A program made the translations under genes and the position numbers. From positions 565 through 64,564 of the forward strand of contig DZAZ01000003.1 in NCBI GenBank assembly GCA_022729755.1: a DNA stretch of 64,000 nt. The letters run 5' to 3'. Each line of letters opens with the position of its first letter. The first letter of the stretch is position 1. The notes under the pieces are model-generated. The model worked only from the letters and a program-made list of their open reading frames with translations. It ran no database searches and had not been told where the DNA came from. The stretch comes from Helicobacter cetorum. Its GTDB lineage: Bacteria; Campylobacterota; Campylobacteria; Campylobacterales; BB28. Below, piece by piece: positions 1-52,667 of this stretch.

Positions 1-824
1 GCTTTACTTAAGATAATCTCCTTATCTCGCCTTCTTTTTTCAAGTTCACTTTGAGTAATATCATATCTTATACTTATAAATTCATCAATTTTATCTTTTG
101 AATTTAAAATGGGTGTAATAGTTGTATCAGTATAATAAACCTCTCCATCTTTAGCACGGTTTTTAATTACACCTCGCCAAATTTTTTTAGCTAAAATTGT
201 TTCCCATAAATTTTTAAAAAATTCAGCTTTAATATCAGGTGAACGAAGAATATTGTGAGATTTACCTATTAATTCATCTTTTGAGTATTTAGAAATTTTA
301 CAAAATTCATCATTTACATAAGTAATAATCCCTTTTATATTGGTTTTTGAAACAATTGCACTTGCATCAATTGCTAATTTATATTCGTGTAAAAGTTGGG
401 TTTGATTTTTTAAAGTTTCACTTTGCAAACTTAATTTTTTTCTTAAATTTATATTTTCAGCAAACTTTTTTAAAGTGTTCTCAAGTGTAATCAAATCTAT
501 TGGTTTTGTGATATATTTATCAACTCCTATCTCTATTGCTTCAACCATTATTTCAAAATCTGTGTGTGCAGTTGTAAAAATTATCGGTATCTCTTTATCT
601 ATCTCTTTAATCTCTCTTGCTAAATCTAAACCATTCATTTTTGGCATTCTTATATCACTAAGCACAATATCTGGAGTGTGAATTTTAAAAATTTCTATTG
701 CTTCTTCGCCATCTTTTGCGATGTAAACCTCTTTTACTTTTCGTTTTAAAAACTTCTCTATTGAATTTCTAATTATCTCTTCATCTTCAACATAAATTAA
801 ACTTATATCTATCTCTTTTTTCAT
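1..824 (-). CDS. REC + PAS domain signalling protein (response-regulator type); C-terminus lies beyond the window edge
   Basis: Absent from the ORF track because it is open to nt 1. Minus-strand ATG at 822-824 gives MKKEIDISLIYVEDEEIIRNSIEKFL...IVLSDIRMPKMNGLDLAREIK...IIIFTTAH...GVDKYITKP, a receiver with acidic pair, D in SDIRMP, T and K-P. A PAS core follows: IITYVNDEFCKISKYSKDELIGKSHNILRSPD...WRGVIKNRAKDGEVYYTDTTITPI...FISIRYDIT. The output domain is not visible. Confidence 0.8.
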   Translation of the reverse strand, partial: MKKEIDISLIYVEDEEIIRNSIEKFLKRKVKEVYIAKDGEEAIEIFKIHTPDIVLSDIRMPKMNGLDLAREIKEIDKEIPIIFTTAHTDFEIMVEAIEIGVDKYITKPIDLITLENTLKKFAENINLRKKLSLQSETLKNQTQLLHEYKLAIDASAIVSKTNIKGIITYVNDEFCKISKYSKDELIGKSHNILRSPDIKAEFFKNLWETILAKKIWRGVIKNRAKDGEVYYTDTTITPILNSKDKIDEFISIRYDITQSELEKRRRDKEIILSK

Positions 825-910
825 TAATCAACTTATTTTTATTATTTTTTTTTATATTATAGTTTCTTTTCTCATAGAAAAAAATAAAAAATTTTTTTGA
901 ATAATAAATT

Positions 911-919
911 TGTTATAAT
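911..919 (+). promoter_or_regulatory. Candidate extended -10 element (TGTTATAAT) for the STAS/partner-switch operon
   Basis: TGTTATAAT at 911-919 lies in the 124-nt divergent intergenic region, about 30 nt upstream of an AGGAAAG Shine-Dalgarno (941-947) and the ATG at 952. This is a motif match only, in an AT-rich background. Confidence 0.35.
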
Positions 920-951
920 TCACACTATTTAAGACAAAAAAGGAAAGAGTG

Positions 952-1254
952 ATGAAAATTGATATTATAAAAAATACTAGCGAGAATATTCTTAATGTTG
1001 AGGGGATTATAAAAAGTAGTGAAAATACACAAAGTTTTATAAATGCAATTGATTCGACACTTAGAGATAATAAAAATTTAACTATAAATATTAAAGATTC
1101 GTTTTCAGTTACCTCAACTGTAATTGGTTTTTTGCTTCAAAAAGTAAATGTAGATAAGATAAATTTAACTATTAATGTTGGAAATGATAGATTATATGAA
1201 CTTTTTGATATGCTTGAACTCATAAGTATTTTAAATATTAAAAAGAGTATTTAA
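952..1254 (+). CDS. STAS-domain protein (SpoIIAA/RsbV-like anti-sigma-factor antagonist family)
   Basis: About 100 aa. The track starts at GTG 949; ATG 952 is better placed behind the SD. INIKDSFSVTSTVIGFLL aligns with the SpoIIAA phospho-serine loop (LNLEDLSFMDSSGLGVIL). DRLYELFDMLELISILNI aligns with the C-terminal KRLFDMSGLFKII helix. The stop TAA abuts the next ATG (1252-1257). Confidence 0.6.
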   Translation: MKIDIIKNTSENILNVEGIIKSSENTQSFINAIDSTLRDNKNLTINIKDSFSVTSTVIGFLLQKVNVDKINLTINVGNDRLYELFDMLELISILNIKKSI

Positions 1255-3465
1255 ATGGATTGCAATTACTTTTATTCGGATAATTTTTTTTTAGAAAGTT
1301 TTGACTCAGGTGAGAGAAATACATCAATTTTAAATATTGCAAATGAAAAGAGTATTTTATTTGTGCTTTCGCTTGATTATACGATATTACAATTTATCTC
1401 TGATTTAAATTTAAATTTAGAGTTTTTGCAAATTTTAAAAGAGATAAAAAATCATTTTCAAGAGATAGAAAAACCACTTTTTATCGCAAAAATAGATTAT
1501 TTAAAAAAAAAATTAAGTTATATTAATTTCAATTCAAACTTTTTATTTATAAAAAAAGTAAATGAAAAATTAAAATTAATAGAAAATTCTAACAATTTTT
1601 TGAATATTACAACTATTTTTTTAGATGAACTTGAATTACTTTATATTTTAAATAATGAAGCTTGTGCGAAATATTTTGAGCAAAATTGCGAAAATTTATT
1701 TTTTGTAAAAGATATTATAAAAAATTTTTACACTAAAAAAGAGAATGTAAACTTTTCGTTTATATTTTTAAATGCACTTTTGCCAAAAACTTCAAATACA
1801 ACTTATCACTACTCAATCAAAGCTAAAAAAGAGAATATTCATAAATTAGAAGATGAAATTGAAGAAGTACTAAATTCACAATTTAGTAATATTGAAAAAG
1901 TAAGCGATGCAGTTACTATTTTAAATGAGTTGCTTTTAAACTCATACGAACACGGTGCTTTAAAAATCGATAGTGAAAAAAAACAAAAATTAATTGAAGA
2001 GTATATGTTTGAAGATTATACAAATGAGTTGGAAGAGAATTTAAATGAAGAGTTAGAAGTGGAATTATCGCTTTATGATAATTTTATTTTAAAAGTTTCA
2101 ATTAAAGATAACGGAAATGGATTTGATTACTCAAAACTTCATAATACTAATCATAATGAGTATCGAGGTAGGGGACTTTTAATATCAAAAAAATTAAGTG
2201 AAGCTCTATTTTTTAGCGAAAATGGCAAGGTAAGTACTTTTTTTGTTAGATTAGCTAAAATCATCGAAGATATCGACATAAATGACCCTTATTTTTACAC
2301 AAAAAAGATGAGTATTTTATATGTTGAAGATGATAAACTTATTAGAGAAGTTTTTAGCCGAATTTTAAAAAAGTATACTCAAACTCTATTTGTAGCAGAG
2401 AATGGGCTTAATGGATTGAATATTTATGAACAATTTGAACCTGATATTATTATTACTGATATTGAAATGCCTATAATGAATGGCTTAGAGATGAGTGCAA
2501 AAATCAGAGAAAGTGATAACGATATCCCAATAATATTAACAACTGCTTATAATGATGAAAAAATATTTTTAGAAGCGATTGATATTGGAGTTGATAAATT
2601 TTTGATTAAACCAATTGAAATGCCCAAATTACAAAAAAGTGTTTTTAAAATTGCTAAAGATGTTTATTTAAAAAATGAAGCGAAAAAACGATTTGCGATT
2701 GAAAAGCGATTAAAAGCAAAAGAGTTGCGGGAACTTCAAATTAAAAATAAATATATAACTCTAGCCCAACAAGCTGCATTTGAAAAAGAGAAATTAATTA
2801 TAAAAGATGATAGCAAAGAGTTAAATATTGAGTGCAAAATTTATTATAAACCACTTGAAATTTTAAGTGGAGATATTTATGGAGTTTGTAAAATCAATGA
2901 TAAATGCACACTTTTTTATATAATCGATAGTATGGGAAAAGGTTTAAGTGCGGCTGTAACTGCAACACTTTCAGCTGCTTTTATAAATCGAGCTATTGTA
3001 ATTTCAACTGGAAAAAATAGTTTTGCTTTGGATAAATTAATTTATGATTATAGTGAATATATTAAAAGTTATCTACTAGAGTATGAGTCTGTTTCACTTA
3101 GTTTTATTTTATTAAACGAATTAGACTATAATATAAAACATACTACTTTTGGAATGTATCCAATTTTAATTAAAGATATTGAAAGTGCAAAATTGGTTAA
3201 AATTAAATCAAACAACCCCCCACTTACAAAACATTTAGATGTGTATAATATTGAAAAGGTTACACTTCCAAAAAGTTTTAGCCTAATGTTTTATTCAGAT
3301 GGAATAATAGAACACGAAGAGTTTTCGCTTTCAGATTTGAAAGAGTCGTTTTTAAAACGAGAAAGTTTTGAAGAGATTAGAATAGACTTTGAAAGCTCTT
3401 TTAAAGATGAAAATTTCGCTTATGAAGACGATGTTAGTGCGATTTTTATAACTAACAATCATTAA
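1255..3465 (+). CDS. Multidomain fusion: unassigned N-terminal ~200 aa + RsbW/SpoIIAB-type ATPase (serine-kinase-like) + receiver + PP2C/SpoIIE phosphatase
   Basis: GHKL ATPase motifs with no preceding H-box: N-box LNELLLNSYEHG, G1 IKDNGNGFD, G2 RGRGLLISKKL. Receiver: ILYVEDDKLIREVF...IIITDIEMPIMNGLEM...ILTTAY...FLIKP. Coiled coil, then SpoIIE-type motifs LSGDIYGV, YIIDSMGKGLSAAVTA, FYSDGIIEH, EDDVSAIFI. Confidence 0.7.
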   Translation: MDCNYFYSDNFFLESFDSGERNTSILNIANEKSILFVLSLDYTILQFISDLNLNLEFLQILKEIKNHFQEIEKPLFIAKIDYLKKKLSYINFNSNFLFIKKVNEKLKLIENSNNFLNITTIFLDELELLYILNNEACAKYFEQNCENLFFVKDIIKNFYTKKENVNFSFIFLNALLPKTSNTTYHYSIKAKKENIHKLEDEIEEVLNSQFSNIEKVSDAVTILNELLLNSYEHGALKIDSEKKQKLIEEYMFEDYTNELEENLNEELEVELSLYDNFILKVSIKDNGNGFDYSKLHNTNHNEYRGRGLLISKKLSEALFFSENGKVSTFFVRLAKIIEDIDINDPYFYTKKMSILYVEDDKLIREVFSRILKKYTQTLFVAENGLNGLNIYEQFEPDIIITDIEMPIMNGLEMSAKIRESDNDIPIILTTAYNDEKIFLEAIDIGVDKFLIKPIEMPKLQKSVFKIAKDVYLKNEAKKRFAIEKRLKAKELRELQIKNKYITLAQQAAFEKEKLIIKDDSKELNIECKIYYKPLEILSGDIYGVCKINDKCTLFYIIDSMGKGLSAAVTATLSAAFINRAIVISTGKNSFALDKLIYDYSEYIKSYLLEYESVSLSFILLNELDYNIKHTTFGMYPILIKDIESAKLVKIKSNNPPLTKHLDVYNIEKVTLPKSFSLMFYSDGIIEHEEFSLSDLKESFLKRESFEEIRIDFESSFKDENFAYEDDVSAIFITNNH

Positions 3466-3491
3466 AATAAAAATAATTTAGAGGTGAGGAA

Positions 3492-4025
3492 GTGTTTAAG
3501 AGATTTTTTTTATTAGTGTTAGGATTTATGTTATTTACTCCTAACTTAGCATTAGCCCTAAATTCGGAAATGGATTTAAAAGCTGTATTTATGGGTAGAT
3601 TTTCAAGTTTTATTACTTGGCCAGAAAAGAAAAAAGAAAACTTTGTTATTACTATTATAGATAATAATCCGTTTGAGAGTAGATTAGATGAGCTTTATAA
3701 AAATAAAGAACTTCAAAAAAAATCGGTTGAAATAAGATATTTAACTCCTAACGATAACATTGAAAAGATAAAAGATAGTGATATTGTCTTTATCACTATT
3801 AAAAATCCACAAAAAGTTAAAGAAGTTGTAGATTTTGCTACAAAAAATTCTATTTTAACAGTTAGTGATAATGATGGTTTTGCCGAAAGAGGTGGAATAA
3901 TTCAAATCGATTTTGTTATGCAAAAAGTGAAATTAAAAATAAATAACACTGCTTCAAAAGATGCAAATATTAAAATAAGTTCATCGCTACTAAATATTTC
4001 AGAAGTGATAGGAGAAAAGAGATGA
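3492..4025 (+). CDS. Periplasmic YfiR/HmsC-like (DUF4154) protein
   Basis: GTG start behind GAGGTGAGGA. Signal peptide MFKRFFLLVLGFMLFTPNLALA. Family-like pattern LKAVFMGRFSSFITWP ... ILTVSDNDGFAERGGIIQIDFVMQKVKLKINNTASKDANIKISSSLLNISEVI. Its stop overlaps the next start (ATGA at 4022-4025). Confidence 0.65.
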   Translation: MFKRFFLLVLGFMLFTPNLALALNSEMDLKAVFMGRFSSFITWPEKKKENFVITIIDNNPFESRLDELYKNKELQKKSVEIRYLTPNDNIEKIKDSDIVFITIKNPQKVKEVVDFATKNSILTVSDNDGFAERGGIIQIDFVMQKVKLKINNTASKDANIKISSSLLNISEVIGEKR

Positions 4026-6409
4026 AAAGGCTTAATTTTGCACTAATTTCTATTGCAACTCTCTCAAATATGGCGATTGCTGAAGATTTATATGATAAAA
4101 GTTTAGATGAACTTTTAAATTTAGAAATGGAACCTAGAGTTGAGATTGGCTCAAGAGAAGGTGCTAGAGATTTGAGTGATAGCGAAGTTCCAATCGATGT
4201 TATAACAGCTAAAGAGATTGAAAAAAGTGGTTATAAAGATTTAAGTAAAATATTACAAAAATATATCCCAAGCTTTAACTATCCAATGCCTTCAATCGTC
4301 GATGGAACCGACCATATTAAACCTTTTACTTTACGAGGTTTAAGTCCTGACCAAGTTTTGGTTTTAATAAATGGTAAACGACTTCATATTAGCTCACTTT
4401 TACACGTAAATGCAACAATCGGTCGAGGTTCTGGAAGTGTTGATTTAAATACAATCCCACTCAACTCAATTGAAAGAATTGAAATATTAAGAGATGGAGC
4501 AGCAGCTCAATATGGTTCAGATGCAATTGCAGGAGTTATAAATATTATTTTAAAAGGTTATGGATATAAAAGCGAATTTTCTGGCACAACTGGAGAAACA
4601 ATAGAAAAAGATGGGAAATTATATCAAAGTGATTTATTCTACTCTGTACCATTAAAATATGATGGATTTATAAATGTTACACTTGAAGCTAGAGATAAAA
4701 ACCCAACAAATAGGGCTGGAGTTGATGCTAGGCAAATGTATCCTGAAGGAGATATTAAAAATGAAGCAACTCCAAAAGTTAGAATGATTGTTGGCGAATC
4801 TGATACTCAAGATTTACTTATGAGCTTAAACATTAAAGCCCCAAATGAGAGTGGAGATATTCACTATTTAAGAGGGATTTTAAGCAAAAGAGAGAGCAAA
4901 GCTGCGGCATATTTTAGAAGGCCAGTAGATGAACGAAATAATCCTGAAATTTATCCTGATGGATTTTTACCTTTTATTTTAGGAAATGTTTTTGATTACT
5001 CGCTAACGGTTGGTATGAGTGGATTTACTTATAATAATATTGAATGGGATTTGAGTAATACGATTGGTTATAATGAATTAAAATATTATGTAGAAAACTC
5101 GCTAAATCAATCATTAGGTATCAATTCGCCAAAATCATTTTATAGTGGTGAATTGAACTTTTTGCAAAATAGTTTAAATTTAGATTTATCAAAAAGAGTT
5201 GATAAATTAAATATAGCGGGTGGATTTGAAGTTCGATATGAAAATTTTGGAATTGAAAAAGGTGAAAATGCTTCATTTATCAAAGGAGACTATGGAAACA
5301 TCGCAGGAGCTCAAAGTTTTCCAGGTTTTAGAGATGAGAATGAAGTTAGTAAAAGTAGACAAAATTATGCTTCATATATCGATTTAAAATATCCATTAAG
5401 CGAAAAATTACTCTTAAATGGTGCAACTAGATATGAGTATTACACCGATTTTGGCTCAACTCTTAATGGAAAAGTTGCACTTTCACACAAAACAACAGAT
5501 AATTTACTTCTTAGAGGTTCGATTAGCACGGGCTTTAGAGCTCCTTCACTTTCTCAAATTCACTATAGTGCAACTGTGACAAATTTCATCGCAGATAGTT
5601 TTTTTGAAACTGGCTCATTCAGTGTTGAACATCCATTAGCCAAATTACTTGGTGCAAAAGATTTAAAACCTGAAAAATCTGAACACTTTACAACAGGCTT
5701 TGTCTATCGACCTTTGCCTAATTTATCGCTTACACTTGATTATTTTTATGCAAAAATTGATGATAGAATAATTTATTCAGAAAATATTGATAGTAGTGTT
5801 TCTGATAAAGCAAAAGAAATTTTCCAAACTAATAGCATTGGAAAGACTAGATTTTTTACAAATGCAATTTCAACGAAGTTAAATGGAGTTGATTTACGGG
5901 CTGATTATAATTATGTTTTTAAAGATTATTCAAAATTAAGCCTTGGAGTTTGGTTTAATTATGCTAAAAATGATATTTTAAGTGTGAATACTCCACCCGA
6001 AGTTTTGGGAGTTAATGGAAAAGATATAATAATTGGGAATTATACAAGACAAACTATTGAAAATGGACAACCAAAAGATAACTTAAAAATTTTAACAAAT
6101 TATGAAATTGATAAGTTAAATATTGCTTTAAATTTTAGTAGATATGGCACATTTCAAGATAGTTTTGAAACGAACAAAAATGTTAAATTTGGTGCAAAAT
6201 GGGTTAGTGATTTAGATGTTTCATATCAAATAAATAAAAATTTAAATGTAGCAATTGGAGCTGAAAATTTATTTGATGTTTATCCCGATAAATGGGGAGA
6301 TAGAAATAGTTTAATTTATGGCTCAAATGCAATTGTGCCATACTCATTTTATTCACCATTTGGATTTTCTGGAGCATTTTATTATCTTAGAGTAAAGATG
6401 CCATTTTAA
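4022..6409 (+). CDS. TonB-dependent outer-membrane receptor
   Basis: Signal peptide. Plug motifs PFTLRGLSPDQVLVLINGKR and IERIEILRDGAAAQYGSDAIAGVINIILK. Long beta-barrel region with FRAPSL, and a terminal aromatic residue (YYLRVKMPF). There is no FecA-type N-terminal signalling extension. Confidence 0.85.
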   Translation: MKRLNFALISIATLSNMAIAEDLYDKSLDELLNLEMEPRVEIGSREGARDLSDSEVPIDVITAKEIEKSGYKDLSKILQKYIPSFNYPMPSIVDGTDHIKPFTLRGLSPDQVLVLINGKRLHISSLLHVNATIGRGSGSVDLNTIPLNSIERIEILRDGAAAQYGSDAIAGVINIILKGYGYKSEFSGTTGETIEKDGKLYQSDLFYSVPLKYDGFINVTLEARDKNPTNRAGVDARQMYPEGDIKNEATPKVRMIVGESDTQDLLMSLNIKAPNESGDIHYLRGILSKRESKAAAYFRRPVDERNNPEIYPDGFLPFILGNVFDYSLTVGMSGFTYNNIEWDLSNTIGYNELKYYVENSLNQSLGINSPKSFYSGELNFLQNSLNLDLSKRVDKLNIAGGFEVRYENFGIEKGENASFIKGDYGNIAGAQSFPGFRDENEVSKSRQNYASYIDLKYPLSEKLLLNGATRYEYYTDFGSTLNGKVALSHKTTDNLLLRGSISTGFRAPSLSQIHYSATVTNFIADSFFETGSFSVEHPLAKLLGAKDLKPEKSEHFTTGFVYRPLPNLSLTLDYFYAKIDDRIIYSENIDSSVSDKAKEIFQTNSIGKTRFFTNAISTKLNGVDLRADYNYVFKDYSKLSLGVWFNYAKNDILSVNTPPEVLGVNGKDIIIGNYTRQTIENGQPKDNLKILTNYEIDKLNIALNFSRYGTFQDSFETNKNVKFGAKWVSDLDVSYQINKNLNVAIGAENLFDVYPDKWGDRNSLIYGSNAIVPYSFYSPFGFSGAFYYLRVKMPF

Positions 6410-8016
6410 TGAGGTTTAATATGAAATTCAACTTTTTTTCTATTCGTTTAAAATTAATTTTATTATTAAGTTTGACTGCTGCAATCGCACTTTTAATTTC
6501 ATCTCTTATCTTTTCTTACTATATTTACAGTTCTGAAAAAGAGAGTTATGTAAAATCGTTAACTCAACTTTCAATGATAAGTAGTGAAAATATTAAACCT
6601 GCGATTGTATTTTTAGACGATACAAGTGCAAATAATATCATCGCTCCATTTAAGTTAAATGAAAATATTTTATCAACCACTGTTTATGATGAGAGTATTT
6701 TGCCGTTTGCTACATATAATTCAAAAGATTTAAACGGTCATCAAATAGAAGAAATCAAAGACGAATCGATTAAAATAATAAAAGAGTTTGAAGATAGAAT
6801 AATTCAAAATAGAGAAATCATAAATATAGTTAAATGGAATAAAATTTTCGTACTAGTTCCAATTATTTTAGAAGAAGAAGATAAAGTAGTTGGAATATTT
6901 CAAATTATTTCAAATACACAAGAGATAAAAGAGAAGTTAATTAATTTAACCATCATTCAAATTGTGATTATTATTTTAACTTTAATTTTAATAACTTACT
7001 TATCTACAAAAGTACAACAAATATTTACAAGTCCTATATTTAAATTAGTTGATGTTATGAATTATATTTCAAAAAGTAAAAAATATGATGTTGAAATAGA
7101 TTTAAATCGACTTGATGAGTTTAAAAACTTAAATGATGGCTTTAACTCTATGATTAAAGAGATTAATAATAGAGACCATAATTTGAGCAATTTAATCGAA
7201 AAATTAGAAATTGCAAAAAAAGAGATAGAAGAGATTCACACTCAATTAAAAGATTCAATCAATTATGCATCTTTAATTCAACAAACACTTATGCCAAAAA
7301 ATGAGAGTTTTGAAAAATATTTCAAAGATTTCTTCGTTTTATGGCAACCACGAGATGTTGTTGGAGGTGATATTTATCTATTTGAAGAGTTGCCAAAAGA
7401 TAAAGGGTGTTTATTAATGGTAATTGATTGCACAGGTCACGGAGTTGGCGGTGCTTTTGTGACAATGCTAACAAAAGCGATAGAGAGAGAAATTGTATCT
7501 AATATTATTGCTGATGATAGAGATATTTCACCATCAGAAATTTTATCTATTTTTAATAAAACGATAAAGCAACTCTTAAAACAAGATAGTAAAGATGCAC
7601 CATCAAATGCTGGATTTGACGGTGGAATTGTATATTTTAATAAAAGAGAAAAATTTATTAAATATGCTGGAGCTAATACTCCTTTATTCATTCTTCAAAA
7701 TGACAAAATAGAAATCATAAAAGGCTCTAAACACTCGATTGGATATAAAACTTCAAATGTAGATTATGTATTTGAAGAGTACAGTATTGATGTTTCAAGC
7801 GAAACTTATTTATATCTTACAACTGATGGATATTTAGACCAAACAAGTGAAGAGAATAATTTTATGTTTGGTAAAAAAAGGTTTCAAAAATTAATCAAAG
7901 ATAATCACGAAAAAACATTTGAAATTCAAAAAAGAATTTTTGAAGATACTCTAACCACTTACCGAGGAAAAAATTCAAAATTAGATGATGTTACAGTTGT
8001 TGGAGTAAAAATATAG
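6409..8016 (+). CDS. Membrane-bound HAMP-domain PP2C/SpoIIE (RsbU-like) serine phosphatase
   Basis: TAATG start/stop overlap at 6407-6411. TM1 (LKLILLLSLTAAIALLISSLIFSYYIY), a ~135-aa extracytoplasmic loop, TM2 (IIQIVIIILTLILITYL), and HAMP (SPIFKLVDVMNYIS...LDEFKNLNDGFNSMIKEIN). Coiled coil, then SpoIIE motifs VVGGDIYLF, MVIDCTGHGVGGAFVTM, LTTDGYLDQ, LDDVTVVGVKI. Confidence 0.75.
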   Translation: MRFNMKFNFFSIRLKLILLLSLTAAIALLISSLIFSYYIYSSEKESYVKSLTQLSMISSENIKPAIVFLDDTSANNIIAPFKLNENILSTTVYDESILPFATYNSKDLNGHQIEEIKDESIKIIKEFEDRIIQNREIINIVKWNKIFVLVPIILEEEDKVVGIFQIISNTQEIKEKLINLTIIQIVIIILTLILITYLSTKVQQIFTSPIFKLVDVMNYISKSKKYDVEIDLNRLDEFKNLNDGFNSMIKEINNRDHNLSNLIEKLEIAKKEIEEIHTQLKDSINYASLIQQTLMPKNESFEKYFKDFFVLWQPRDVVGGDIYLFEELPKDKGCLLMVIDCTGHGVGGAFVTMLTKAIEREIVSNIIADDRDISPSEILSIFNKTIKQLLKQDSKDAPSNAGFDGGIVYFNKREKFIKYAGANTPLFILQNDKIEIIKGSKHSIGYKTSNVDYVFEEYSIDVSSETYLYLTTDGYLDQTSEENNFMFGKKRFQKLIKDNHEKTFEIQKRIFEDTLTTYRGKNSKLDDVTVVGVKI

Positions 8017-8038
8017 TCACGAAAAAAGAGAGTTAAAA

Positions 8039-8536
8039 TTAATTTGGAGTATCCCAAGTTCTTTTTAAAAGTCCAGCAACTTTTAAAATTGTAAAAATCC
8101 TATCATCTTTTTTTCCAACTCCATAAATCAAATCTCCCTCTTCGTGAGTTTCAGGAATTGGGTCTATTAAGTTTTCTTTAATTCTAATTGCTTCAGTTAA
8201 TTTATCAATTACAAATCCAGCTACTTCATTATTATTTTTTATAACAATATATCTAGTATCCTCATTTTGTCTTGCTTCTTGTAATCCAAATTTAAGCCTC
8301 AAATCAATAAGTGGAATTACACTACCCCTTAAATTAAAAACTCCTAAAACATAATCTGGAGTACTTGGAACTCTTGTAAATTCAACAGGTTTAATAATCT
8401 CTTGAATACTTAAAATTGGAACTGCAAACTCTTCTTCACCCACAAAAAAACCAACTAATTGAACAATATTTTCATTTTCTATAACTTCAGAGTTTTGGTT
8501 TTGCTGTCTCTTTACTACCTCTTTTAACCTATCCAT
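8039..8536 (-). CDS. cheW: Chemotaxis coupling protein CheW
   Basis: 165 aa CheW-like domain: QLVGFFVGEEEFAVPILSIQEIIKPVEFTRVPSTPDYVLGVFNLRGSVIPLIDLRLKFGL. Lies 9 nt downstream of cheA. Confidence 0.9.
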   Translation of the reverse strand: MDRLKEVVKRQQNQNSEVIENENIVQLVGFFVGEEEFAVPILSIQEIIKPVEFTRVPSTPDYVLGVFNLRGSVIPLIDLRLKFGLQEARQNEDTRYIVIKNNNEVAGFVIDKLTEAIRIKENLIDPIPETHEEGDLIYGVGKKDDRIFTILKVAGLLKRTWDTPN

Positions 8537-8545
8537 CTTTTACCT

Positions 8546-10939
8546 TTATGATAAATTTAAGTTTCTTTTTACAACATTTGCTAAATATTCAGGTGAATAT
8601 GGTTTTGTGATATATTCAGTCATTCCAACTTCAACACCTCGCATTCTATCGGCTTTACTTGTTCTACTTGTAACTGCAATTAATGGAATATTTTTGAATT
8701 TATTATATTTTCTAATTTCACTTGCCAAAGTATAACCATCCATTCGAGGCATTTCTATATCAATTAACATTAAATCAATATCAGCTGAATCATCTTTCAT
8801 AATATTTAATGCATCAACCCCATTTGATGCCTCTTGCATACTAACTCCAACTGGTTCAAGCGATTTTCTCATAATTGTTCTATCAGTTTTTGAGTCATCA
8901 ACCATTAAAACTTTATAATCTTTTGCTGAACTTTTTGTTTTTTTAGAACTTTTAACAGCCATTTTTTCAACTAAATTTACTTTCACATTTTTAGCTAAAT
9001 CCATTAAAGCAGCAATATCAACAATTAAAGTAACTTTTCCATCACCTCTAATTGTAGCCCCTGCAATTCCTGCAATTCCTTTTAAATAATCACCCAGTGA
9101 TTTAATAACTATCTCTTCTTGACCAACTAAAGTATCAACTATAACTCCAAGTTTTTTCTCTGCAAGTCCTATTACAACAACATAAACGTGTTCACTATTA
9201 TCAAAAACTTCTTTCACTCCAAAAATATCAGCAAGTTTCACAAGTGGCAACACTTCATTTCTAAGTCTAAGTACACTTCTACCCTCAACTGTAGAAATAT
9301 CATCAAAATTAATTCTAACAGTTTCTAAAACTGAAGCAATTGGAATTGCATAATACTCTTCTTGAGCTCCAACAAGTAGAGCTTGAATGATTGCTAGTGT
9401 TAGAGGAATTTTAAGCTTCATTACTGAACCTTTTCCTATTTCACTATCAACATCAATAATACCATTTAATTTTTCAATATTTGTCTTAACAACATCCATT
9501 CCAACACCACGACCAGAAACATTCGTAACTTGTGCTGCTGTTGATAACCCTGCTTTAAAAATAAGAGAAAATGCTTCTTTATCACTCATAGAATCAGCTT
9601 CTCTCTCATTTATCATACCACTTTCCAGTGCTTTTTGCTTAATTTTTTCTGGGTCAATTCCTTTTCCATCGTCATTAATTTCAATAACAATGTGATTTCC
9701 CTCATTGTAAGCTTTAAGCTCAACCGTACCCACTTCATTTTTTCCAGCTGCAGTTCTAACATTTGGTTGTTCTATTCCGTGGTCGCACGAATTTCTAATA
9801 ATGTGTACAAGTGGGTCACCAATCTCTTCAACGATTGATTTATCAAGCTCTGTCTCTTCCCCACTTACTATAAGTTCGATTTTTTTATCAAGGTCTCTTG
9901 CTAAATCTCTTACCATTCTTGGGAATTTATTAAACACTTTTCCAATAGGAAGCATTCTTGTTTTCATAACTGCGATTTGAAGGTCAGTTGTCACAAGTGA
10001 AATAGAAGAAACAACTTGATTTAACTCTTCTAAAAATTGCTCACCCTCGTATCGCTCTTCAACATCGTTATAAATTTTTAAAAGCCTATTTTTACCTAAA
10101 ACAAGCTCACCAATTAAATTCATTAAATTATCAAGTCTTTTTACATCAACCCTAATAGTTTGCTCAACGGCTGAAACAGAAGAAGCTTTTGCAGCGGCAG
10201 CTTTTGCATCATCAACTTTTTCAGCTCTTGCTACTGGTTTTGGTGGTGGCGGAGGTGCTTTTTGTACTTCAACTTCTTGTTTTACAACTGGTGCAGGAGC
10301 ACTCTCTTTAACTGGCTCTGGAGTTGACTCTTCAGCTGAAGATGTACCTTTTTTTGTTTCTCTTCGCCTTTTATCCTCTTCTTGTCGTACTCTTAAAAGC
10401 CGTTCTATCTCATTTTCTATCTCTTCAGGTGACATATTTGAATAATCGAGCTCTTCACCAATTTCTAACGAAACTTCAGGAGCTTTTGTTTCCACTTCTT
10501 CTACTTTTGTTGGCTCTTGTGTAGCCCCTTGTCTTGGAGGTGGAACATTACCACTTGAGATTGCATCAAGTCTTGGGATAACATGATTAATATCAATTCC
10601 ACTGTTTTTATCGCTTCCGGTATCTCTAATTCTCTCAAGCAACGATTTCATCATATCGATTGACTCTAAAACTACATCCATAATTTCAGGTCTTATTTTT
10701 AAATCACCGTGTCTTGCTTTATTTAAAACATCTTCCATATGATGAGTAAGTTTTGTTAAAACATCAAAATTTAAAAACGAACTTGAACCCTTGATAGTAT
10801 GAGCCACCCTAAATATTCTATTTAACAAATCAAGGTCATCAGGATTACTCTCAAGCTCAACCAAATCTTGGTCAAGCTGTTCTATCATTTCAAATGCTTC
10901 GACGAGAAAATCTTCTAATATATCTTGAATATCTTCCAT
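8546..10939 (-). CDS. cheA: Chemotaxis histidine kinase CheA with C-terminal CheY-like receiver (CheAY fusion)
   Basis: HPt His in RVAHTIKGSSSF. Pro/Ala-rich linker. HATPase N-box IRNSCDHGIE, G1 NDDGKGID, G2 SGRGVGMDVV. P5 CheW-like region. C-terminal receiver VLMVDDS...MLIDIEMPRMDG...AVTSR...ITKP, the fusion typical of Campylobacter/Helicobacter. Confidence 0.95.
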   Translation of the reverse strand: MEDIQDILEDFLVEAFEMIEQLDQDLVELESNPDDLDLLNRIFRVAHTIKGSSSFLNFDVLTKLTHHMEDVLNKARHGDLKIRPEIMDVVLESIDMMKSLLERIRDTGSDKNSGIDINHVIPRLDAISSGNVPPPRQGATQEPTKVEEVETKAPEVSLEIGEELDYSNMSPEEIENEIERLLRVRQEEDKRRRETKKGTSSAEESTPEPVKESAPAPVVKQEVEVQKAPPPPPKPVARAEKVDDAKAAAAKASSVSAVEQTIRVDVKRLDNLMNLIGELVLGKNRLLKIYNDVEERYEGEQFLEELNQVVSSISLVTTDLQIAVMKTRMLPIGKVFNKFPRMVRDLARDLDKKIELIVSGEETELDKSIVEEIGDPLVHIIRNSCDHGIEQPNVRTAAGKNEVGTVELKAYNEGNHIVIEINDDGKGIDPEKIKQKALESGMINEREADSMSDKEAFSLIFKAGLSTAAQVTNVSGRGVGMDVVKTNIEKLNGIIDVDSEIGKGSVMKLKIPLTLAIIQALLVGAQEEYYAIPIASVLETVRINFDDISTVEGRSVLRLRNEVLPLVKLADIFGVKEVFDNSEHVYVVVIGLAEKKLGVIVDTLVGQEEIVIKSLGDYLKGIAGIAGATIRGDGKVTLIVDIAALMDLAKNVKVNLVEKMAVKSSKKTKSSAKDYKVLMVDDSKTDRTIMRKSLEPVGVSMQEASNGVDALNIMKDDSADIDLMLIDIEMPRMDGYTLASEIRKYNKFKNIPLIAVTSRTSKADRMRGVEVGMTEYITKPYSPEYLANVVKRNLNLS

Positions 10940-10966
10940 ATCAATTTCCTTATATATAATTAAAAC

Positions 10967-11911
10967 TTATTTTTTTAATAAATTAGAAACTTCTTCATAA
11001 AACTTTGTTGCATCAAATTTAACCAAATATGCATCTCCACCCGCTTCAATTCCTCTTGAAGTACTAAATTGGTCACTTATTGAAGAATTAAAAATTACAG
11101 GAATTCCCGCATACCTCGAGTCATCTTTTACATTTTTTGTAAAATGAAAACCGTCCATCTTTGGCATTTCAACATCACTTACTATAATCTTTAAATGTTT
11201 ATTTAAATCTTTTCCATAAGTTTTATAGAGGTCTTCAAGTTTATTTAATCCCTCTTCCCCATCTTTTGCTTCAACAACTTTTAATCCCGTCCTCTCAAGT
11301 GCATCTTTTACAAGTTTTCTAGCAATCATCGAATCATCAAGTGCTAATGCCAAACCATCAAATTTTTCAATCTTTTTTCCATCTTCTAAATTCACTTCAG
11401 ATTGATAAAATCCAAGTTCTTGCACAACACTCTCAAGGTCTAAAATTAATAAAACTTCATTGTTTTCAATTCTAGTAACACCTGTTATTTTAGATTTATC
11501 TAAAAGCCCTCCACCACTGCTAAATGATGCTGGTTCGATGCTATTCCAATTAATTCTTCTAATTCTCTTAGCTTCGTGAACTATAAAACCAACTAGTACA
11601 TTATTGAATTCAGCAATAATAATTCTAGGTTTTATTTTAACTCTCTCTGGAACCGTTACACCCATCCATTTTGCTAAATCAATAACAGGAATTACAACTC
11701 CTCTTAAATCAAAAATTCCCTCTACAAAGTCGGGAACACCTGGAAGTTCAGTTAATTTTGGTAAAGATATGATTTCTCTCACTTTTGAGACATTTACACC
11801 ATAAATCCCCTCATAAACCTTACCTCTTTCTTCTTTGAATATCCTAAAATCCACCAACTCAAGCTCATTTGAACCCACTTTTAATATACTATCTTTTTTA
11901 AGAGACATCAA
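10967..11911 (-). CDS. cheV: Chemotaxis protein CheV (CheW-like domain + receiver)
   Basis: N-terminal CheW-like domain (ELVDFRIF...GVNVSKVREII...LPGVPDFVEGIFDLRGVVIPVIDL). C-terminal receiver (ALALDDSMIARKL...IIVSDVEMPKMDG...FNSS...LVKF). Confidence 0.9.
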   Translation of the reverse strand: MMSLKKDSILKVGSNELELVDFRIFKEERGKVYEGIYGVNVSKVREIISLPKLTELPGVPDFVEGIFDLRGVVIPVIDLAKWMGVTVPERVKIKPRIIIAEFNNVLVGFIVHEAKRIRRINWNSIEPASFSSGGGLLDKSKITGVTRIENNEVLLILDLESVVQELGFYQSEVNLEDGKKIEKFDGLALALDDSMIARKLVKDALERTGLKVVEAKDGEEGLNKLEDLYKTYGKDLNKHLKIIVSDVEMPKMDGFHFTKNVKDDSRYAGIPVIFNSSISDQFSTSRGIEAGGDAYLVKFDATKFYEEVSNLLKK

Positions 11912-12647
11912 AGCTCCTTAGATTTGCTTTAAAAAATGAAAAACTCTCTAATGTTGATTTTATAATAAAAAAACTTTTTTCACAAGCAAAAGAGGGCATG
12001 TTTATATAAACTAAGTTTTTATATTTAAACTCTATTCCTTGATGAAAATGAGCTTCTACCAAAAAATCAATATTAGACAAATTCTCAAAACTACTTAATC
12101 GCTTAAAAATAAATTGTTCAAAATTAAAAAACTTTTTACAAATCGACTTTTTTTCAAGCCAATTAAAAATATTTTTTGAAATTTTATCTTTCAAAAGTTT
12201 ACCATTCACAAAATTTAATACAACTAAAATATATCTGTTTCTTATTATTTTTGAGAAAACTTTATAATTAAAACCTATATTTATATCTCCGTGAGAAAAT
12301 ATAAGCTTAAATTTTTTAAATTTAAAAAGTGTAGGTTGATTTTTTAGAGAAATAATTTTAATATTCTTAAAGATTTCTTTCAAATTAAAATCGTGATTTC
12401 CCTCAAAATAAATAATTTCCATCTCATATGAAAGTTTATTTAATTTTTCAATGATGTTTTTATTTATCTTTAAAGTGTAATCAATTTGACCAACTAATAA
12501 ATCAAAAATATCACCTAAAAGTAAAAGTTGGGGAGGTTTTTTAATTTCGATTAAATTTAAAAACTCTTCAAACTCCTTTCTATTTTGATTAAAGTGAATA
12601 TCGCTGATTAAAATTGCACCCTCTTTTAGTTCTAAATTATGGTACAT
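11898..12647 (-). CDS. Calcineurin-like metallophosphoesterase, LpxH-like (possible UDP-2,3-diacylglucosamine hydrolase)
   Basis: Metallophosphoesterase motif series ISDIHF, LLLGDIFDLL, FEGNHDF, FSHGD, AHFHQ. The specific LpxH assignment is inferred only from motif spacing. Confidence 0.5.
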   Translation of the reverse strand: MYHNLELKEGAILISDIHFNQNRKEFEEFLNLIEIKKPPQLLLLGDIFDLLVGQIDYTLKINKNIIEKLNKLSYEMEIIYFEGNHDFNLKEIFKNIKIISLKNQPTLFKFKKFKLIFSHGDINIGFNYKVFSKIIRNRYILVVLNFVNGKLLKDKISKNIFNWLEKKSICKKFFNFEQFIFKRLSSFENLSNIDFLVEAHFHQGIEFKYKNLVYINMPSFACEKSFFIIKSTLESFSFFKANLRSFDVS

Positions 12648-13644
12648 AAGAGATTATTGGAATTCCTAAATTTTCTTCATAGCCACAAACTATATTTGCA
12701 TTTACAACAGCTTGAGATGAAGCTCCCCTTAATAAATTATCAATTGAAGCATTTATAAAAAGTGCTTTTTTATTGACTTTTGCAAAAATATCACAAAAAT
12801 TTGTTCCTGCAGTTGATTTTAAGTCTACGGGAGAATTTTTAATTCTTATGAATTTTTCATTTTTATAAGTTTCTTTTAAAATCTCTATTGGATTAATCTC
12901 TTCTTTTAAATTAACATAAGAGTTAACTAACATTCCCCTTGTAACTGGAATTAATTGAGGAATAAAATTTATATCAAACTCAATACCTTTTAAAAATTGA
13001 AGTTTTTCTTTGATTTCAGGTGAATGACGATGTGCAAAAGGATTGTAAGCAAACATATTATCATTTATGCTCACAAAATGGGTATTATCCAGACATTTTT
13101 TACCAGCTCCACTTACTCCACTTTTTGCATCTATAAAAATTGAACTTTTTTCATCAATATATTTAGCAAACGGCAAAAGTGATAAGAGAGTTGCAGTTGG
13201 ATAACAACCTGGATTTGCAATTAAATTTGATTTTTTTATCTCATCTCTAAAATATTCTGGAAGCCCATAAACAGCACTTTTTAAATTCTCTTTATCTATA
13301 TGAGGACAATAAAACTCTTCATAAGTTTCTAACTTTAATCTATAATCAGCCGAAAGGTCAATAACTTTAACACCTAAATTGATTAACTCTTTTGCAAATC
13401 CCATAGAAGCTTTATGTGGAAGTGCTAAAAAAGCTAATTTTGCATTTTGTGCCACATCTTTTGCACTTGCCTTCTTTACTTCAATTTCAAAAACCCCATC
13501 TAAACAAGGATGAAGTTCACTAAGCTTTATTTCACCCTCACTATTTGCAACATAAGTAATATTAAATTTTGGATGATTTAAAATTATCTTAATAAGCTCA
13601 AGTCCCGTGTATCCACTAGCTCCAATAATTGCCACATTAACCAT
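12637..13644 (-). CDS. argC: N-acetyl-gamma-glutamyl-phosphate reductase
   Basis: VAIIGASGYTGLELIKIILNHP NAD-binding N-terminus. Catalytic Cys context ANPGCYPTA. 335 aa. Confidence 0.9.
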   Translation of the reverse strand: MVNVAIIGASGYTGLELIKIILNHPKFNITYVANSEGEIKLSELHPCLDGVFEIEVKKASAKDVAQNAKLAFLALPHKASMGFAKELINLGVKVIDLSADYRLKLETYEEFYCPHIDKENLKSAVYGLPEYFRDEIKKSNLIANPGCYPTATLLSLLPFAKYIDEKSSIFIDAKSGVSGAGKKCLDNTHFVSINDNMFAYNPFAHRHSPEIKEKLQFLKGIEFDINFIPQLIPVTRGMLVNSYVNLKEEINPIEILKETYKNEKFIRIKNSPVDLKSTAGTNFCDIFAKVNKKALFINASIDNLLRGASSQAVVNANIVCGYEENLGIPIISYVP

Positions 13645-13757
13645 TATTTTCCCCTCTCTTTAACTTCACAAACTCCATCTTCACAAATGACTTGTGTACC
13701 TAAATTTGTACAGCCAATTAATAAAAAAGCTAAAAGTATAAATTCCAAAATTCTCAC
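13644..13757 (-). CDS. Small (37-codon) putative lipoprotein ORF, below the ORF-track length cutoff
   Basis: GTG at 13755-13757 follows the dut stop directly (TGAGTG) and sits 5 nt after an AGGAG. Translation (M)RILEFILLAFLLIGCTNLGTQVICEDGVCEVKERGK has a charged n-region, hydrophobic core and lipobox LIGC. Its TAA overlaps the argC ATG (TAATG at 13642-13646). It fills the whole dut-argC gap. Confidence 0.5.
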   Translation of the reverse strand: MRILEFILLAFLLIGCTNLGTQVICEDGVCEVKERGK

Positions 13758-14201
13758 TCAAACTCCTGTACTTCCAAATCCACCAACACCTCTATTTGTC
13801 GTGCTAAGCTCATCAACCTCATCAAATTCAGCCTTGATAATAGGAATAATACTAGCTTGTGCAACTCTATCATTTGCATTAAATTCAGGAGGCATTTTAT
13901 CGTGAATTGCTATTAATTTTATCTTTACTTCACCTCTGTAATCGCTATCTATTAAACCAGTGCCATTTGCTAAATGCACATTATATTTAAATCCACTTCC
14001 ACTTCTTGGAAATATAAACATTCCATAATTCAGTGGAATTTCAAAAGCAAGTCCAGTTTCGATAATTGTTTCATATAAATTTGGTTCTATAAATTTCCAT
14101 TTAACTTCATCCATCGTATGTAAATCAAATGCAATAGCACCATCAGTTGCATATTTTGGAATTATTGCATTAATATTTAATTTTTTTATTTTAATTCTCA
14201 A
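13758..14201 (-). CDS. dut: dUTP diphosphatase
   Basis: [10 protein letters not shown] and C-terminal [10 protein letters not shown] motifs. 147 aa. Confidence 0.9.
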
Positions 14202-49434: not shown

Positions 49435-50058
49435 ATGACAATCTTTAAAATGATAGCTGATATGATGTTTAGCGATGATTTGACAAGCAATGAAGTAAAA
49501 GAGAGACTTGACCAAGAGTTCAACGGATATGGTTATATGAAAAGGGTTTATGGGGTTGAGCATATGCCTGAAATGGCGACAATTGTAAAGCTATCAATTA
49601 CTGACACTCTTACAAAAGCTTATAATAGATTAGCATTTGAGAGTTTTTTAGAAGAAGAAGTTAATAAAACAAAAAGATATAAAACACCTTTAACACTTGT
49701 CATTTTTGGGATTGATTATTTTAGAAAAATAAATAATGAACACGGTAGTTTAATAGGAAACTTTGTCTTAATAGAGTTGGCTGATTTGGTTAAAAAAGAG
49801 ATAAGAACTACGGATATGTTATTTCGTTGGAATGGAGATGAATTTTTAGTAATTGTTCCACATACTGATGTTGAAGGTGCTGAAATTATGATAGGAAAAT
49901 TAAAAGATAAAATTAAAAATTTCGATTTTAATACAATTGGAAATACTCTAAATTGCAGTTTTGCAAATGTTGAATATCAGCCAGAATTCACTACTCACGA
50001 CTTTGTTCAAAGTGCTGAAGCAGCTCTTCAAAAAGTAAAATTAATTAGAGGTAATTAA
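49435..50058 (+). CDS. Stand-alone cytoplasmic GGDEF-domain protein with degenerate active site (NGDEF)
   Basis: TDTLTKAYNRLAF, VIFGIDYFRKINNEHGSLIGNFVL, IRTTDMLFRWNGDEFLVIV. No TM and no recognisable N-terminal sensor domain (about 55 aa precede the domain). Confidence 0.75.
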   Translation: MTIFKMIADMMFSDDLTSNEVKERLDQEFNGYGYMKRVYGVEHMPEMATIVKLSITDTLTKAYNRLAFESFLEEEVNKTKRYKTPLTLVIFGIDYFRKINNEHGSLIGNFVLIELADLVKKEIRTTDMLFRWNGDEFLVIVPHTDVEGAEIMIGKLKDKIKNFDFNTIGNTLNCSFANVEYQPEFTTHDFVQSAEAALQKVKLIRGN

Positions 50059-50127
50059 AAAAACTTTTCTACTTATTTTTTCTACCTATTTAAAATTTTA
50101 AAATTTATTAAAACAAGGATTTTTAAT

Positions 50128-52122: not shown

Positions 52123-52127
52123 CCAAA

Positions 52128-52667
52128 ATGAATATAAAAAAAATATTTATACTCAAGATATTAACCATAAATATGGCATTTAGTATGGTATTTGCAAATG
52201 AGTTAGTATCTCAAAGTAAAATATTTCCTCACTTTTTAACTTACGATAAAGATATAAAAGATAAAGTATTTGATAATTGTATAAATTTTGTAATAATTTA
52301 TGATAAATTTTCGCAAAATAGTGCAGAAAAATTAAAAGATTTGATACTAACAGAACACTCTAATAAATTAAATGATTATAATTTAAATGTGATTTTAAGC
52401 GATACACTAGAGAGTGAAGTATTAAAAAAAGCAAGTGCCGTATATCTATTTGATATAGATGATAATCTTATAAATGAAATCACAAACTTTACTATAAAAA
52501 ACCATATTATCACTTTTGCACTAAATTCAAATATGTTAAAAAAGAATATTACAATTTCACTTTTAATTGCAAAAAAAGTTCAACCAATTATAAATCTCAA
52601 AGTTTTAAAAGATTCAAACATCACACTTTCACACAAAATTTTTAAAGTTTGCAAAGTTTATGAATAA
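52128..52667 (+). CDS. Secreted protein, divergent YfiR/DUF4154-like candidate
   Basis: Signal-peptide-like N-terminus, and size and position equivalent to 3492-4025. Only a loose family-like pattern (IFPHFLTY..., HIITFALNSNMLKKNITISLLI...IINLKVLKDSNITLSHKIFKV). Starts 5 nt after the receptor stop. Confidence 0.4.
   Translation: MNIKKIFILKILTINMAFSMVFANELVSQSKIFPHFLTYDKDIKDKVFDNCINFVIIYDKFSQNSAEKLKDLILTEHSNKLNDYNLNVILSDTLESEVLKKASAVYLFDIDDNLINEITNFTIKNHIITFALNSNMLKKNITISLLIAKKVQPIINLKVLKDSNITLSHKIFKVCKVYE

Follow-up and report, generated by a model that had tools for sequence, protein, structure and literature searches.

A conserved trio of YfiR-like protein, TonB-dependent receptor and CHASE8 sensor in Helicobacter cetorum and its possible role in sensing across the cell envelope

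In a 64,000-nucleotide stretch of a Helicobacter cetorum genome (assembly GCA_022729755.1, contig DZAZ01000003.1, positions 565 to 64,564; hereafter the window), we analyzed three adjacent genes encoding a YfiR-like periplasmic protein of the DUF4154 family, a TonB-dependent receptor (TBDR) and an inner-membrane sensor phosphatase, in which a CHASE8 domain is combined with a PP2C domain. The same trio recurs across phyla with exchanged output domains, and its receptors carry a characteristic N-terminal signature where their unlinked relatives have a hydrophobic TonB box. Based on this comparative analysis, the trio could represent a portable trans-envelope sensing module, which relays a surface signal by capture of the YfiR-like protein; we regard the chances of this relay as about even.

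The three proteins and their conservation as a module

The YfiR-like protein matches the Pfam family DUF4154 ('YfiR/HmsC-like') with an E value of 1.1e-32. In addition, an AlphaFold2 (AF2) model built on 14 relatives (predicted local distance difference test, pLDDT, 85.9) was compared with the PDB using Foldseek, and the best 15 matches were all YfiR, with target-normalised template modelling (TM) scores of 0.70–0.80 at about 11% identity. A sequence-only PDB search with the profile of the YfiR-like protein fell short of significance for YfiR (E 0.1–0.6), and the assignment is therefore founded on Pfam and on the fold. The N-terminus is hydrophobic at residues 4–25, and the protein contains no cysteine at all; its relatives are likewise Cys-free outside the signal peptide, making this a property of the subfamily. 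An earlier, sequence-only reading of this DNA had proposed the DUF4154 assignment, the signal peptide and the lack of cysteine, all of which are borne out. Conserved positions of the subfamily (ILTVS, GFA.RGG.IQ, KVKLKIN and LKISSSLL) are located in the C-terminal half, the same half that holds the conserved binding face of YfiR. Among the best-scoring DUF4154 relatives (P0030, P0031, P0037 and others), many are 340–390 aa long and contain two tandem DUF4154 domains.

For the sensor phosphatase, the same reading had described a transmembrane segment, an extracytoplasmic loop of about 135 aa, a second transmembrane segment and a HAMP domain, which is the membrane layout of YfiN-type cyclases. 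This layout was recovered here: hydrophobic segments are found within residues 8–40 and 173–205, the loop between them is a CHASE8 domain of about 132 aa, and the NCBIfam model of DgcN/YfiN matches residues 23–295 with 65 bits. The PP2C domain matches the SiaA structure 6K4E with an E value of 2.9e-45 and keeps the metal-binding motifs RDVVGGD, DCTGHG, TDGYLDQ and DDVT. On the C-terminal half, the SiaA model NF038263 reached 263 bits compared to a cut-off of 700, with a match to profile positions 302–656 only. Judged by these domain matches, the sensor half of the phosphatase is YfiN-like and the catalytic half SiaA-like. Its true start may be Met5, with the ATG at 6421 instead of 6409, because the 63%-identical homologue in a related locus (L004) aligns from that residue.

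The trio represents the last three of five plus-strand genes at 949–8016, which follow each other with nearly no spacing. The YfiR-like and receptor genes overlap (ATGA at 4022), as do the receptor and phosphatase genes (TAATG at 6409), and the trio is therefore packed as an operon. Upstream, the first two genes abut directly (TAA, then ATG, at 1254/1255), and the start at 3492 is preceded by a 26-nt gap with a ribosome-binding site. With a G+C content of about 27%, the window is AT-rich. A candidate operon promoter with an extended −10-like element (Table 1) is weakly supported, because a consensus promoter scan scored no better than shuffled sequence in such DNA; the terminator scan was uninformative in AT-rich DNA. 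The sequence-only reading had also suggested looking for Fur or other metal-regulator boxes as a hint to the substrate. A Fur box was sought in the promoter and in the gap at 3465–3492, and the best match (12/19) did not exceed the window background.

To compare the locus across genomes, relatives of the YfiR-like protein were aligned, and an alignment-based search fetched 49 loci, with one genome per species, where a single-sequence locus search had yielded only two. The open reading frames of these loci were classified with purpose-built profiles and Pfam tallies. A TBDR directly adjoins the DUF4154 gene in 47/49 loci, with one of the two exceptions lying at a contig end, and a CHASE8 sensor completes the trio in 44/49 loci. 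This adjacency spans at least five phyla, including Campylobacterota, Pseudomonadota (gamma, beta and zeta), Thermodesulfobacteriota and Acidobacteriota. The gene order differs between the groups: YfiR-like protein, receptor and sensor in Campylobacterota; sensor, YfiR-like protein and receptor in beta- and gammaproteobacteria as well as Geobacteraceae; receptor, YfiR-like protein and sensor in Acidobacteriota and others. In loci such as L038 and L050, the sensor is transcribed divergently. The sequence-only reading had been tied to the conservation of the receptor/YfiR-like adjacency in related genomes, and the adjacency holds in all three gene orders. Altogether, the trio is a real, conserved module.

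The output domain of the sensor belongs to the PP2C type in 11 loci, to the GGDEF type in 21 and to the histidine-kinase type in 12, and it changes at least seven times on the maximum-likelihood tree of the YfiR-like proteins. As the outputs are interchanged this often, the front end, comprising the receptor, the YfiR-like protein and the CHASE8 domain, is the constant unit of the module. Furthermore, a Pfam scan of 86 flanking genes revealed no member of the OmpA/YfiB, ABC-transporter, periplasmic-binding-protein or TonB/ExbD families, and therefore the receptor stands in for YfiB and does not belong to an uptake operon. In one Terriglobia locus (L046 7651–10110), the gene after the DUF4154 gene apparently encodes, according to the Pfam tally and the profile scan, a Ser/Thr protein kinase (Pkinase) without a CHASE8 match. 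This kinase would be a further output or a variant of the architecture.

A different explanation dispenses with a relay. In this case, the CHASE8 sensor would form a self-contained pair with the YfiR-like protein, and the receptor gene would either be regulated by this pair or encode a nutrient transporter that is merely co-transcribed. Operon membership alone is indeed no proof of physical coupling, and canonical YfiR/YfiN can signal without any receptor. However, this would leave unexplained why the adjacency persists in 47/49 species, through three gene orders and even in loci with a divergent sensor, and why the receptor signature described below tracks the presence of a YfiR-like gene. 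The outputs (PP2C, GGDEF and kinase) are also not transcription factors of a kind that would obviously target one gene. We consequently give this explanation little credence.

A remodelled TonB-box region in YfiR-linked receptors

In Pfam, the receptor shows Plug and barrel domains only, and its AF2 model represents a complete plug and barrel (pLDDT 87.4, predicted TM score 0.88). The fold matches were generic (PirA, PfeA, Cir and BtuB, about 16% identity), and the fold comparison gave no clue to the substrate. An STN domain, i.e. a FecA-type N-terminal signalling domain, was not found in the receptor with Pfam, and neither FecR nor extracytoplasmic function (ECF) sigma factor genes are present among the neighbours at 1–14000. 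Both absences had been noted in the sequence-only reading, which further pointed to a short segment between signal peptide and plug with the acidic motif SLDELLNLEME; this segment comprises about 30 residues (21–50), with the motif at residues 27–37.

A canonical hydrophobic TonB box is not present before the plug of the window receptor, and RVEIGSR (KAEVGSR in the family) is found in its place. Throughout the YfiR-linked clade, the region between signal peptide and plug follows the consensus LY.KSL[DE]ELL..ET..KA[DE][VI]GSRSG.RD, and this signature is present in 29/29 receptors. As a control set, we used 80 further relatives of the receptor with 34–47% identity. Three of the 80 have DUF4154 and CHASE8 neighbours, and both of those with a readable N-terminus carry the signature. 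The remaining 77 are unlinked, and the signature occurs in none of the 68 with a parsable N-terminus. At the same position, these 68 receptors have a hydrophobic TonB box, which reads [IV][IV]VTG[TS]R in 52 and is a close variant such as IEVVGSR in 16. This comparison indicates that K-A-[DE]-[VI] took the place of the hydrophobic box residues in the YfiR-linked receptors, and that SLEELL, an acidic element prone to form a helix, was acquired upstream of it; in the receptor model, a short helix is formed at residues 28–33 within an otherwise low-pLDDT N-terminus. That the TonB box is replaced specifically in these receptors is a finding newly made here and provides the most useful new handle for experimental work.

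A second, unrelated clade of YfiR-linked receptors (Acidobacteriota, NCBIfam TOL_0244 type) carries KSLEDLMNIEVTSVSK, and the window itself contains a second receptor/YfiR-like pair at 49435–52667 (Table 1). As far as can be judged from their N-termini, the acidobacterial clade and the second pair are independent cases of a signature in linked receptors and point the same way. No CHASE8 sensor accompanies the second pair at 49435–52667, and the protein database holds one partial homologue only. In L005 (8510–13116) and L040 (442–2732), a single YfiR-like gene precedes a tandem of two receptor genes (in L005 for proteins of 772 and 761 aa), and both tandem receptors carry the signature in the forms SLEDxM...AEVGSR and KADIGSR.

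TonB boxes are strand-forming segments that become exposed upon ligand binding, as in BtuB, FhuA and FecA. The sequence-only reading had suggested that the receptor may report its substrate or occupancy state to the phosphatase via the YfiR-like protein. For the trio, we infer the protein–protein contacts, the direction of the signal, the role of a ligand and the final output as follows. At rest, the YfiR-like protein would sit on the CHASE8 domain and hold the sensor off. Binding of a ligand to the receptor would free the remodelled N-terminal segment (SLDELL...RVEIGSR) into the periplasm, where it would capture the YfiR-like protein in the way YfiB does, by beta-strand pairing. The released CHASE8-HAMP part would then switch on the SiaA-type PP2C domain, and this domain would dephosphorylate a partner-switch protein of the STAS/SiaC type (in most Campylobacterota relatives SiaC, together with SiaB kinase and HD-GYP). 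In the known system, YfiR represses YfiN via the periplasmic domain of the latter, and YfiB captures YfiR at the outer membrane (PMC4655355). The crystal structure showed that a strand of YfiB is added to the beta7 edge of YfiR, at a conserved face that presumably also binds YfiN (PMC4655355).

Within this scheme, the docking step, in which the remodelled box binds the YfiR-like protein, is less certain than the relay overall. In its general form, SLEELL...KAEVGSR would be a docking site for the YfiR-like protein instead of or besides TonB, and this site would be exposed by the ligand. Capture of the YfiR-like protein at the outer membrane by beta-strand pairing would then release any CHASE8 sensor, be it a phosphatase, a cyclase, a kinase or a chemoreceptor. 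We put this forward as a tentative and still rather doubtful proposal. If correct, docking would constitute a third general mechanism of signalling by TonB-type receptors beside the FecA type and import followed by sensing, would be present in many phyla and might be independent of TonB energy. To our knowledge, the only signalling route of TonB-dependent receptors runs via contact of their N-terminal domain with an anti-sigma factor. The receptors described here form a large set spread widely over the phylogeny, lack such a signalling domain and are nevertheless locked in cassettes of three genes, the other two of which encode a YfiR-like protein and a CHASE8 sensor. A true relay would represent a new mode by which Gram-negative cells perceive their surroundings, linking outer-membrane sensing to cyclic di-GMP (c-di-GMP), two-component and Ser/Thr partner-switch pathways. 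It would also suggest a binding partner and a mechanism open to testing for thousands of unassigned DUF4154 proteins, of which there are 13,893 clusters at an E value of 1e-10 or better.

In the main rival explanation, the receptor would be an ordinary TonB-energised importer of a scarce small molecule. The YfiR-like protein, once loaded with this molecule, would dock on or leave the CHASE8 domain, comparable to LuxP/LuxQ and TorT/TorS, and the receptor N-terminus would contact TonB only. The fold of the YfiR-like protein fits this explanation, as the next matches of its model after YfiR are substrate-binding proteins (5Z6V, 3LKV and 6HNI), and the YfiR fold has been described as equivalent to one half of a periplasmic binding protein of type I (PMC4655355). 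Furthermore, plug and barrel of the receptor are complete as in true transporters, and both G-S-R and a strand-like pattern are preserved in the modified box. What import would not explain is why an acidic SLEELL and the loss of the hydrophobic box should occur in at least two unrelated clades of YfiR-linked receptors. Inner-membrane uptake genes are also missing next to the trio, though sensing alone would need none. Overall, we consider import followed by sensing less likely than the relay, but more likely than the other alternatives.

It is also conceivable that the receptor serves as a mere outer-membrane anchor, which sequesters the YfiR-like protein upon changes in the geometry or integrity of the envelope and responds to no specific ligand. 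This would be directly analogous to the YfiB model, in which the distance between outer membrane and peptidoglycan gates the capture of YfiR (PMC4655355), and it would agree with the negative Fur-box search and with a fold devoid of substrate clues, from which no ligand can be inferred. However, a gated barrel of 795 aa with a conserved plug would be a costly anchor. In the linked receptors, barrel and plug are conserved across phyla (55% mean column identity, with many invariant residues), which argues for a working ligand-gated channel and makes an anchor quite improbable.

Output of the phosphatase and gene neighbourhood

In most Campylobacterota relatives, including the closest one (L001/L009, 69% identity), the trio is flanked by SiaB-like (DUF6272), SiaC (DUF1987) and HD-GYP genes; these flank it in L001, L005, L007, L014, L030, L033, L034, L037 and L045. 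SiaA-type phosphatases act on the STAS-like SiaC in a threonine phospho-switch (PMC7647112). From this gene context, the trio of the Campylobacterota relatives appears to be the input of a SiaABC-type threonine phospho-switch, which is aimed at the breakdown of c-di-GMP and not at its synthesis. In L007/L039 (1949–7752, minus strand), a gene divergent from the trio encodes a fusion of AAA_16, GAF, SpoIIE and DUF6272 with 1700 aa, combining a phosphatase and a SiaB-like kinase in one chain, and adjoins a gene for a 242-aa Ser/Thr kinase.

The 64-kb window contains no match to SiaB, SiaC or HD-GYP, and its only GGDEF match (49435–50058) is not adjacent to the operon. Instead, the operon starts with genes for a 101-aa STAS-like protein and a 736-aa fusion protein (Table 1). 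The partner-switch parts recognised in the operon with Pfam are HATPase_c_2 and two PP2C domains. The 101-aa protein has no match to a Pfam family, and STAS is represented only by a weak profile match: the profile of eight homologues matches RsbV (6M36) over the full length with an E value of 1.3e-3, and the alignment places DSFSVTSTVIG on the region of the DSTGLG phospho-site. An identity of the 101-aa protein as SiaC was ruled out (hhalign probability 1%). The fusion is 69% identical to a protein of a relative, the gene of which comes after those of a chemoreceptor and a STAS-like protein of 99 aa. The sequence-only reading had relied on the STAS protein as a readout of the trio; the protein remains the candidate substrate, but it belongs to a separate module. 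In one metagenome, the STAS/fusion pair and the trio are found on separate scaffolds (L058 and L004). The window joins two modules that are separate elsewhere, which modestly supports the STAS-like protein as the target of the SiaA-type phosphatase. Taken from this arrangement, the substrate of the phosphatase is most likely the 101-aa STAS-like protein, which would be re-phosphorylated by the RsbW-like domain of the second gene.

Several observations weigh against the relay and its proposed output. With respect to co-transcription, the stretch is present in three metagenomic DNA runs and in no RNA run. The gene linkage of the trio is explained equally well by import followed by sensing. Given its G-S-R and its alternating pattern, the modified box may simply be a TonB box that is tuned to one TonB paralogue. 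As the motif comparison is largely based on one receptor clade, the contrast between the 29 linked and the 68 unlinked receptors partly reflects one evolutionary event. On the output side, the STAS assignment of the 101-aa protein is weak at the E value given above, and in relatives the STAS-like/fusion pair follows a HAMP/MCP chemoreceptor gene with no trio nearby (L058 2842–7024 and L059 7389–11528). Finally, partner-switch genes are missing next to the trio of L003/L004, which is 63% identical; therefore, the substrate of the phosphatase could be encoded elsewhere in this organism.

Outside the operon, a receiver-PAS gene (3–824, minus strand) is oriented divergently and runs off the window end. 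The gene cheW and a fusion of cheA with a receiver domain are oriented convergently to the operon, and this arrangement may or may not be of relevance. As a speculation based on these nearby convergent genes, the receiver domain of the 736-aa fusion may be phosphorylated by CheA.

Table 1 Features of the trio operon and of the second receptor/YfiR-like pair (positions within the window)
Feature	Position	Strand	Basis or remark
Candidate operon promoter, extended −10-like element TTGTTATAAT	910..919	+	Read directly; in the 124-nt AT-rich gap 5' of the first gene
STAS-like protein (anti-sigma-antagonist type), 101 aa, candidate phospho-substrate	949..1254	+	Profile match to RsbV
Invariant motif DSFSVTSTVIG of the 101-aa protein	1096-1128	+	Kept in eight homologues
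Fusion protein, 736 aa: RsbW-type kinase (HATPase_c_2), receiver, PP2C (SpoIIE)	1255..3465	+	Pfam
YfiR-like periplasmic protein (DUF4154), 177 aa	3492..4025	+	Pfam, fold, signal peptide, no cysteine
TonB-dependent receptor (TBDR), 795 aa, plug and 22-strand barrel, C-terminal F	4022..6409	+	Pfam, AF2
Remodelled TonB-box region: SLDELLNLEME (residues 27-37), P, RVEIGSR (residues 39-45)	4100..4156	+	Family comparison
Inner-membrane sensor phosphatase, 535 aa, TM1-CHASE8-TM2-HAMP-PP2C (TM1, TM2: transmembrane segments)	6409..8016	+	Pfam CHASE8 and SpoIIE
CHASE8 loop of the phosphatase, ~residues 41-172	6529-6924	+	Pfam; loop ~132 aa
HAMP-like sequence of the phosphatase, ~residues 208-252	~7030-7164	+	Sequence
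SiaA-type PP2C domain	~7180-8013	+	PDB 6K4E match
Soluble GGDEF protein, 207 aa	49435-50058	+	GGDEF match
Divergent TonB-dependent receptor, 664 aa, N-terminus DALEEVTEIATKTK	50128-52122	+	Sequence
Weak DUF4154 relative, 179 aa, signal peptide	52128-52667	+	Pfam E 3e-4, below cut-off; hhalign E 0.0023

Relation to known signalling systems

The closest described relatives in terms of design are YfiBNR (TpbB/DgcN-YfiR-YfiB) of P. aeruginosa and E. coli and HmsCDE of Yersinia, which likewise combine a soluble DUF4154 protein, a TM-CHASE8-TM-HAMP sensor and an outer-membrane partner. The sequence-only reading had spoken of YfiBNR logic with swapped parts, and this analogy holds, with the YfiR fold, the CHASE8 and HAMP domains of YfiN and a receptor in the place of YfiB. 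The likely logic is also shared, namely repression by a soluble protein that is relieved upon its capture at the outer membrane (PMC4655355). In contrast, the outer-membrane partner is a 795-aa TBDR here and an OmpA/Pal-like lipoprotein in the case of YfiB, the output is a SpoIIE/PP2C phosphatase instead of a GGDEF diguanylate cyclase, and the cysteine pairs of YfiR (Cys71-Cys110 and Cys145-Cys152) are absent from a protein with about 11% identity to it. The trio thus resembles YfiBNR in its working but is not a member of it, as a search for a GGDEF output, a YfiB lipoprotein and the cysteine pairs of YfiR was negative in each case. In the absence of cysteines, the disulfide/DsbA dependence of YfiR cannot apply to the YfiR-like protein, in agreement with the proposal of the sequence-only reading that it would not be redox-gated like YfiR. 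Cysteine is lacking throughout the subfamily, and YfiR-type repression would accordingly not need redox-sensitive disulfides as described in Pseudomonas.

In its catalytic half, with HAMP and a SiaA-type PP2C domain, the phosphatase resembles SiaABCD of P. aeruginosa (PA0172-PA0169), and the trio of the Campylobacterota relatives is flanked by SiaB-like and SiaC genes. However, the periplasmic domain is CHASE8 and not the one of SiaA itself, the relatives carry an HD-GYP enzyme where SiaABCD has the SiaD cyclase, and the window encodes an RsbW-REC-PP2C fusion together with a STAS-like protein. With FecA/FecR/FecI transducers, the trio shares an outer-membrane TonB-type receptor that is dedicated to signalling and stands outside an uptake operon. 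Nevertheless, it is not a FecA-type transducer, because an STN domain, an anti-sigma factor and an ECF sigma factor are all lacking; in the proposed relay, a CHASE8 sensor would be addressed by a soluble protein of the periplasm.

We found no paper linking YfiR/YfiN, DUF4154 or CHASE8 with TonB-dependent receptors. The same three-part design is, however, catalogued in NCBIfam as a trio of models, namely NF053590 (TOL_0244 TBDR), NF053591 (TOL_0243 YfiR-like) and NF053592 (YfiR-like protein-associated sensor histidine kinase), for which no publication was found. With a sister trio of kinase output already in NCBIfam, the idea is less new than the sequence-only reading had implied. The acidobacterial locus L057 reaches 159.5 bits on the YfiR-like model (cut-off 125), 217.9 on the sensor model (194) and 633 on the receptor model (645). 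All three window proteins match these models as well, but remain far below the cut-offs, with 98.2 bits versus 125 for the YfiR-like protein, 54.2 versus 645 for the receptor and 96.9 versus 194 for the N-terminal half of the phosphatase. The receptor match is limited to the N-terminal 156 residues, and its alignment starts at SLDELL. Furthermore, the window receptor belongs to a different branch (FepA/Cir-like, about 790 aa), and the output is a phosphatase and not a hybrid kinase. Consequently, the trio described here is a sister of the catalogued one, with a SiaA-type phosphatase as output in Campylobacterota and joined, in this window, to a STAS/RsbW module.

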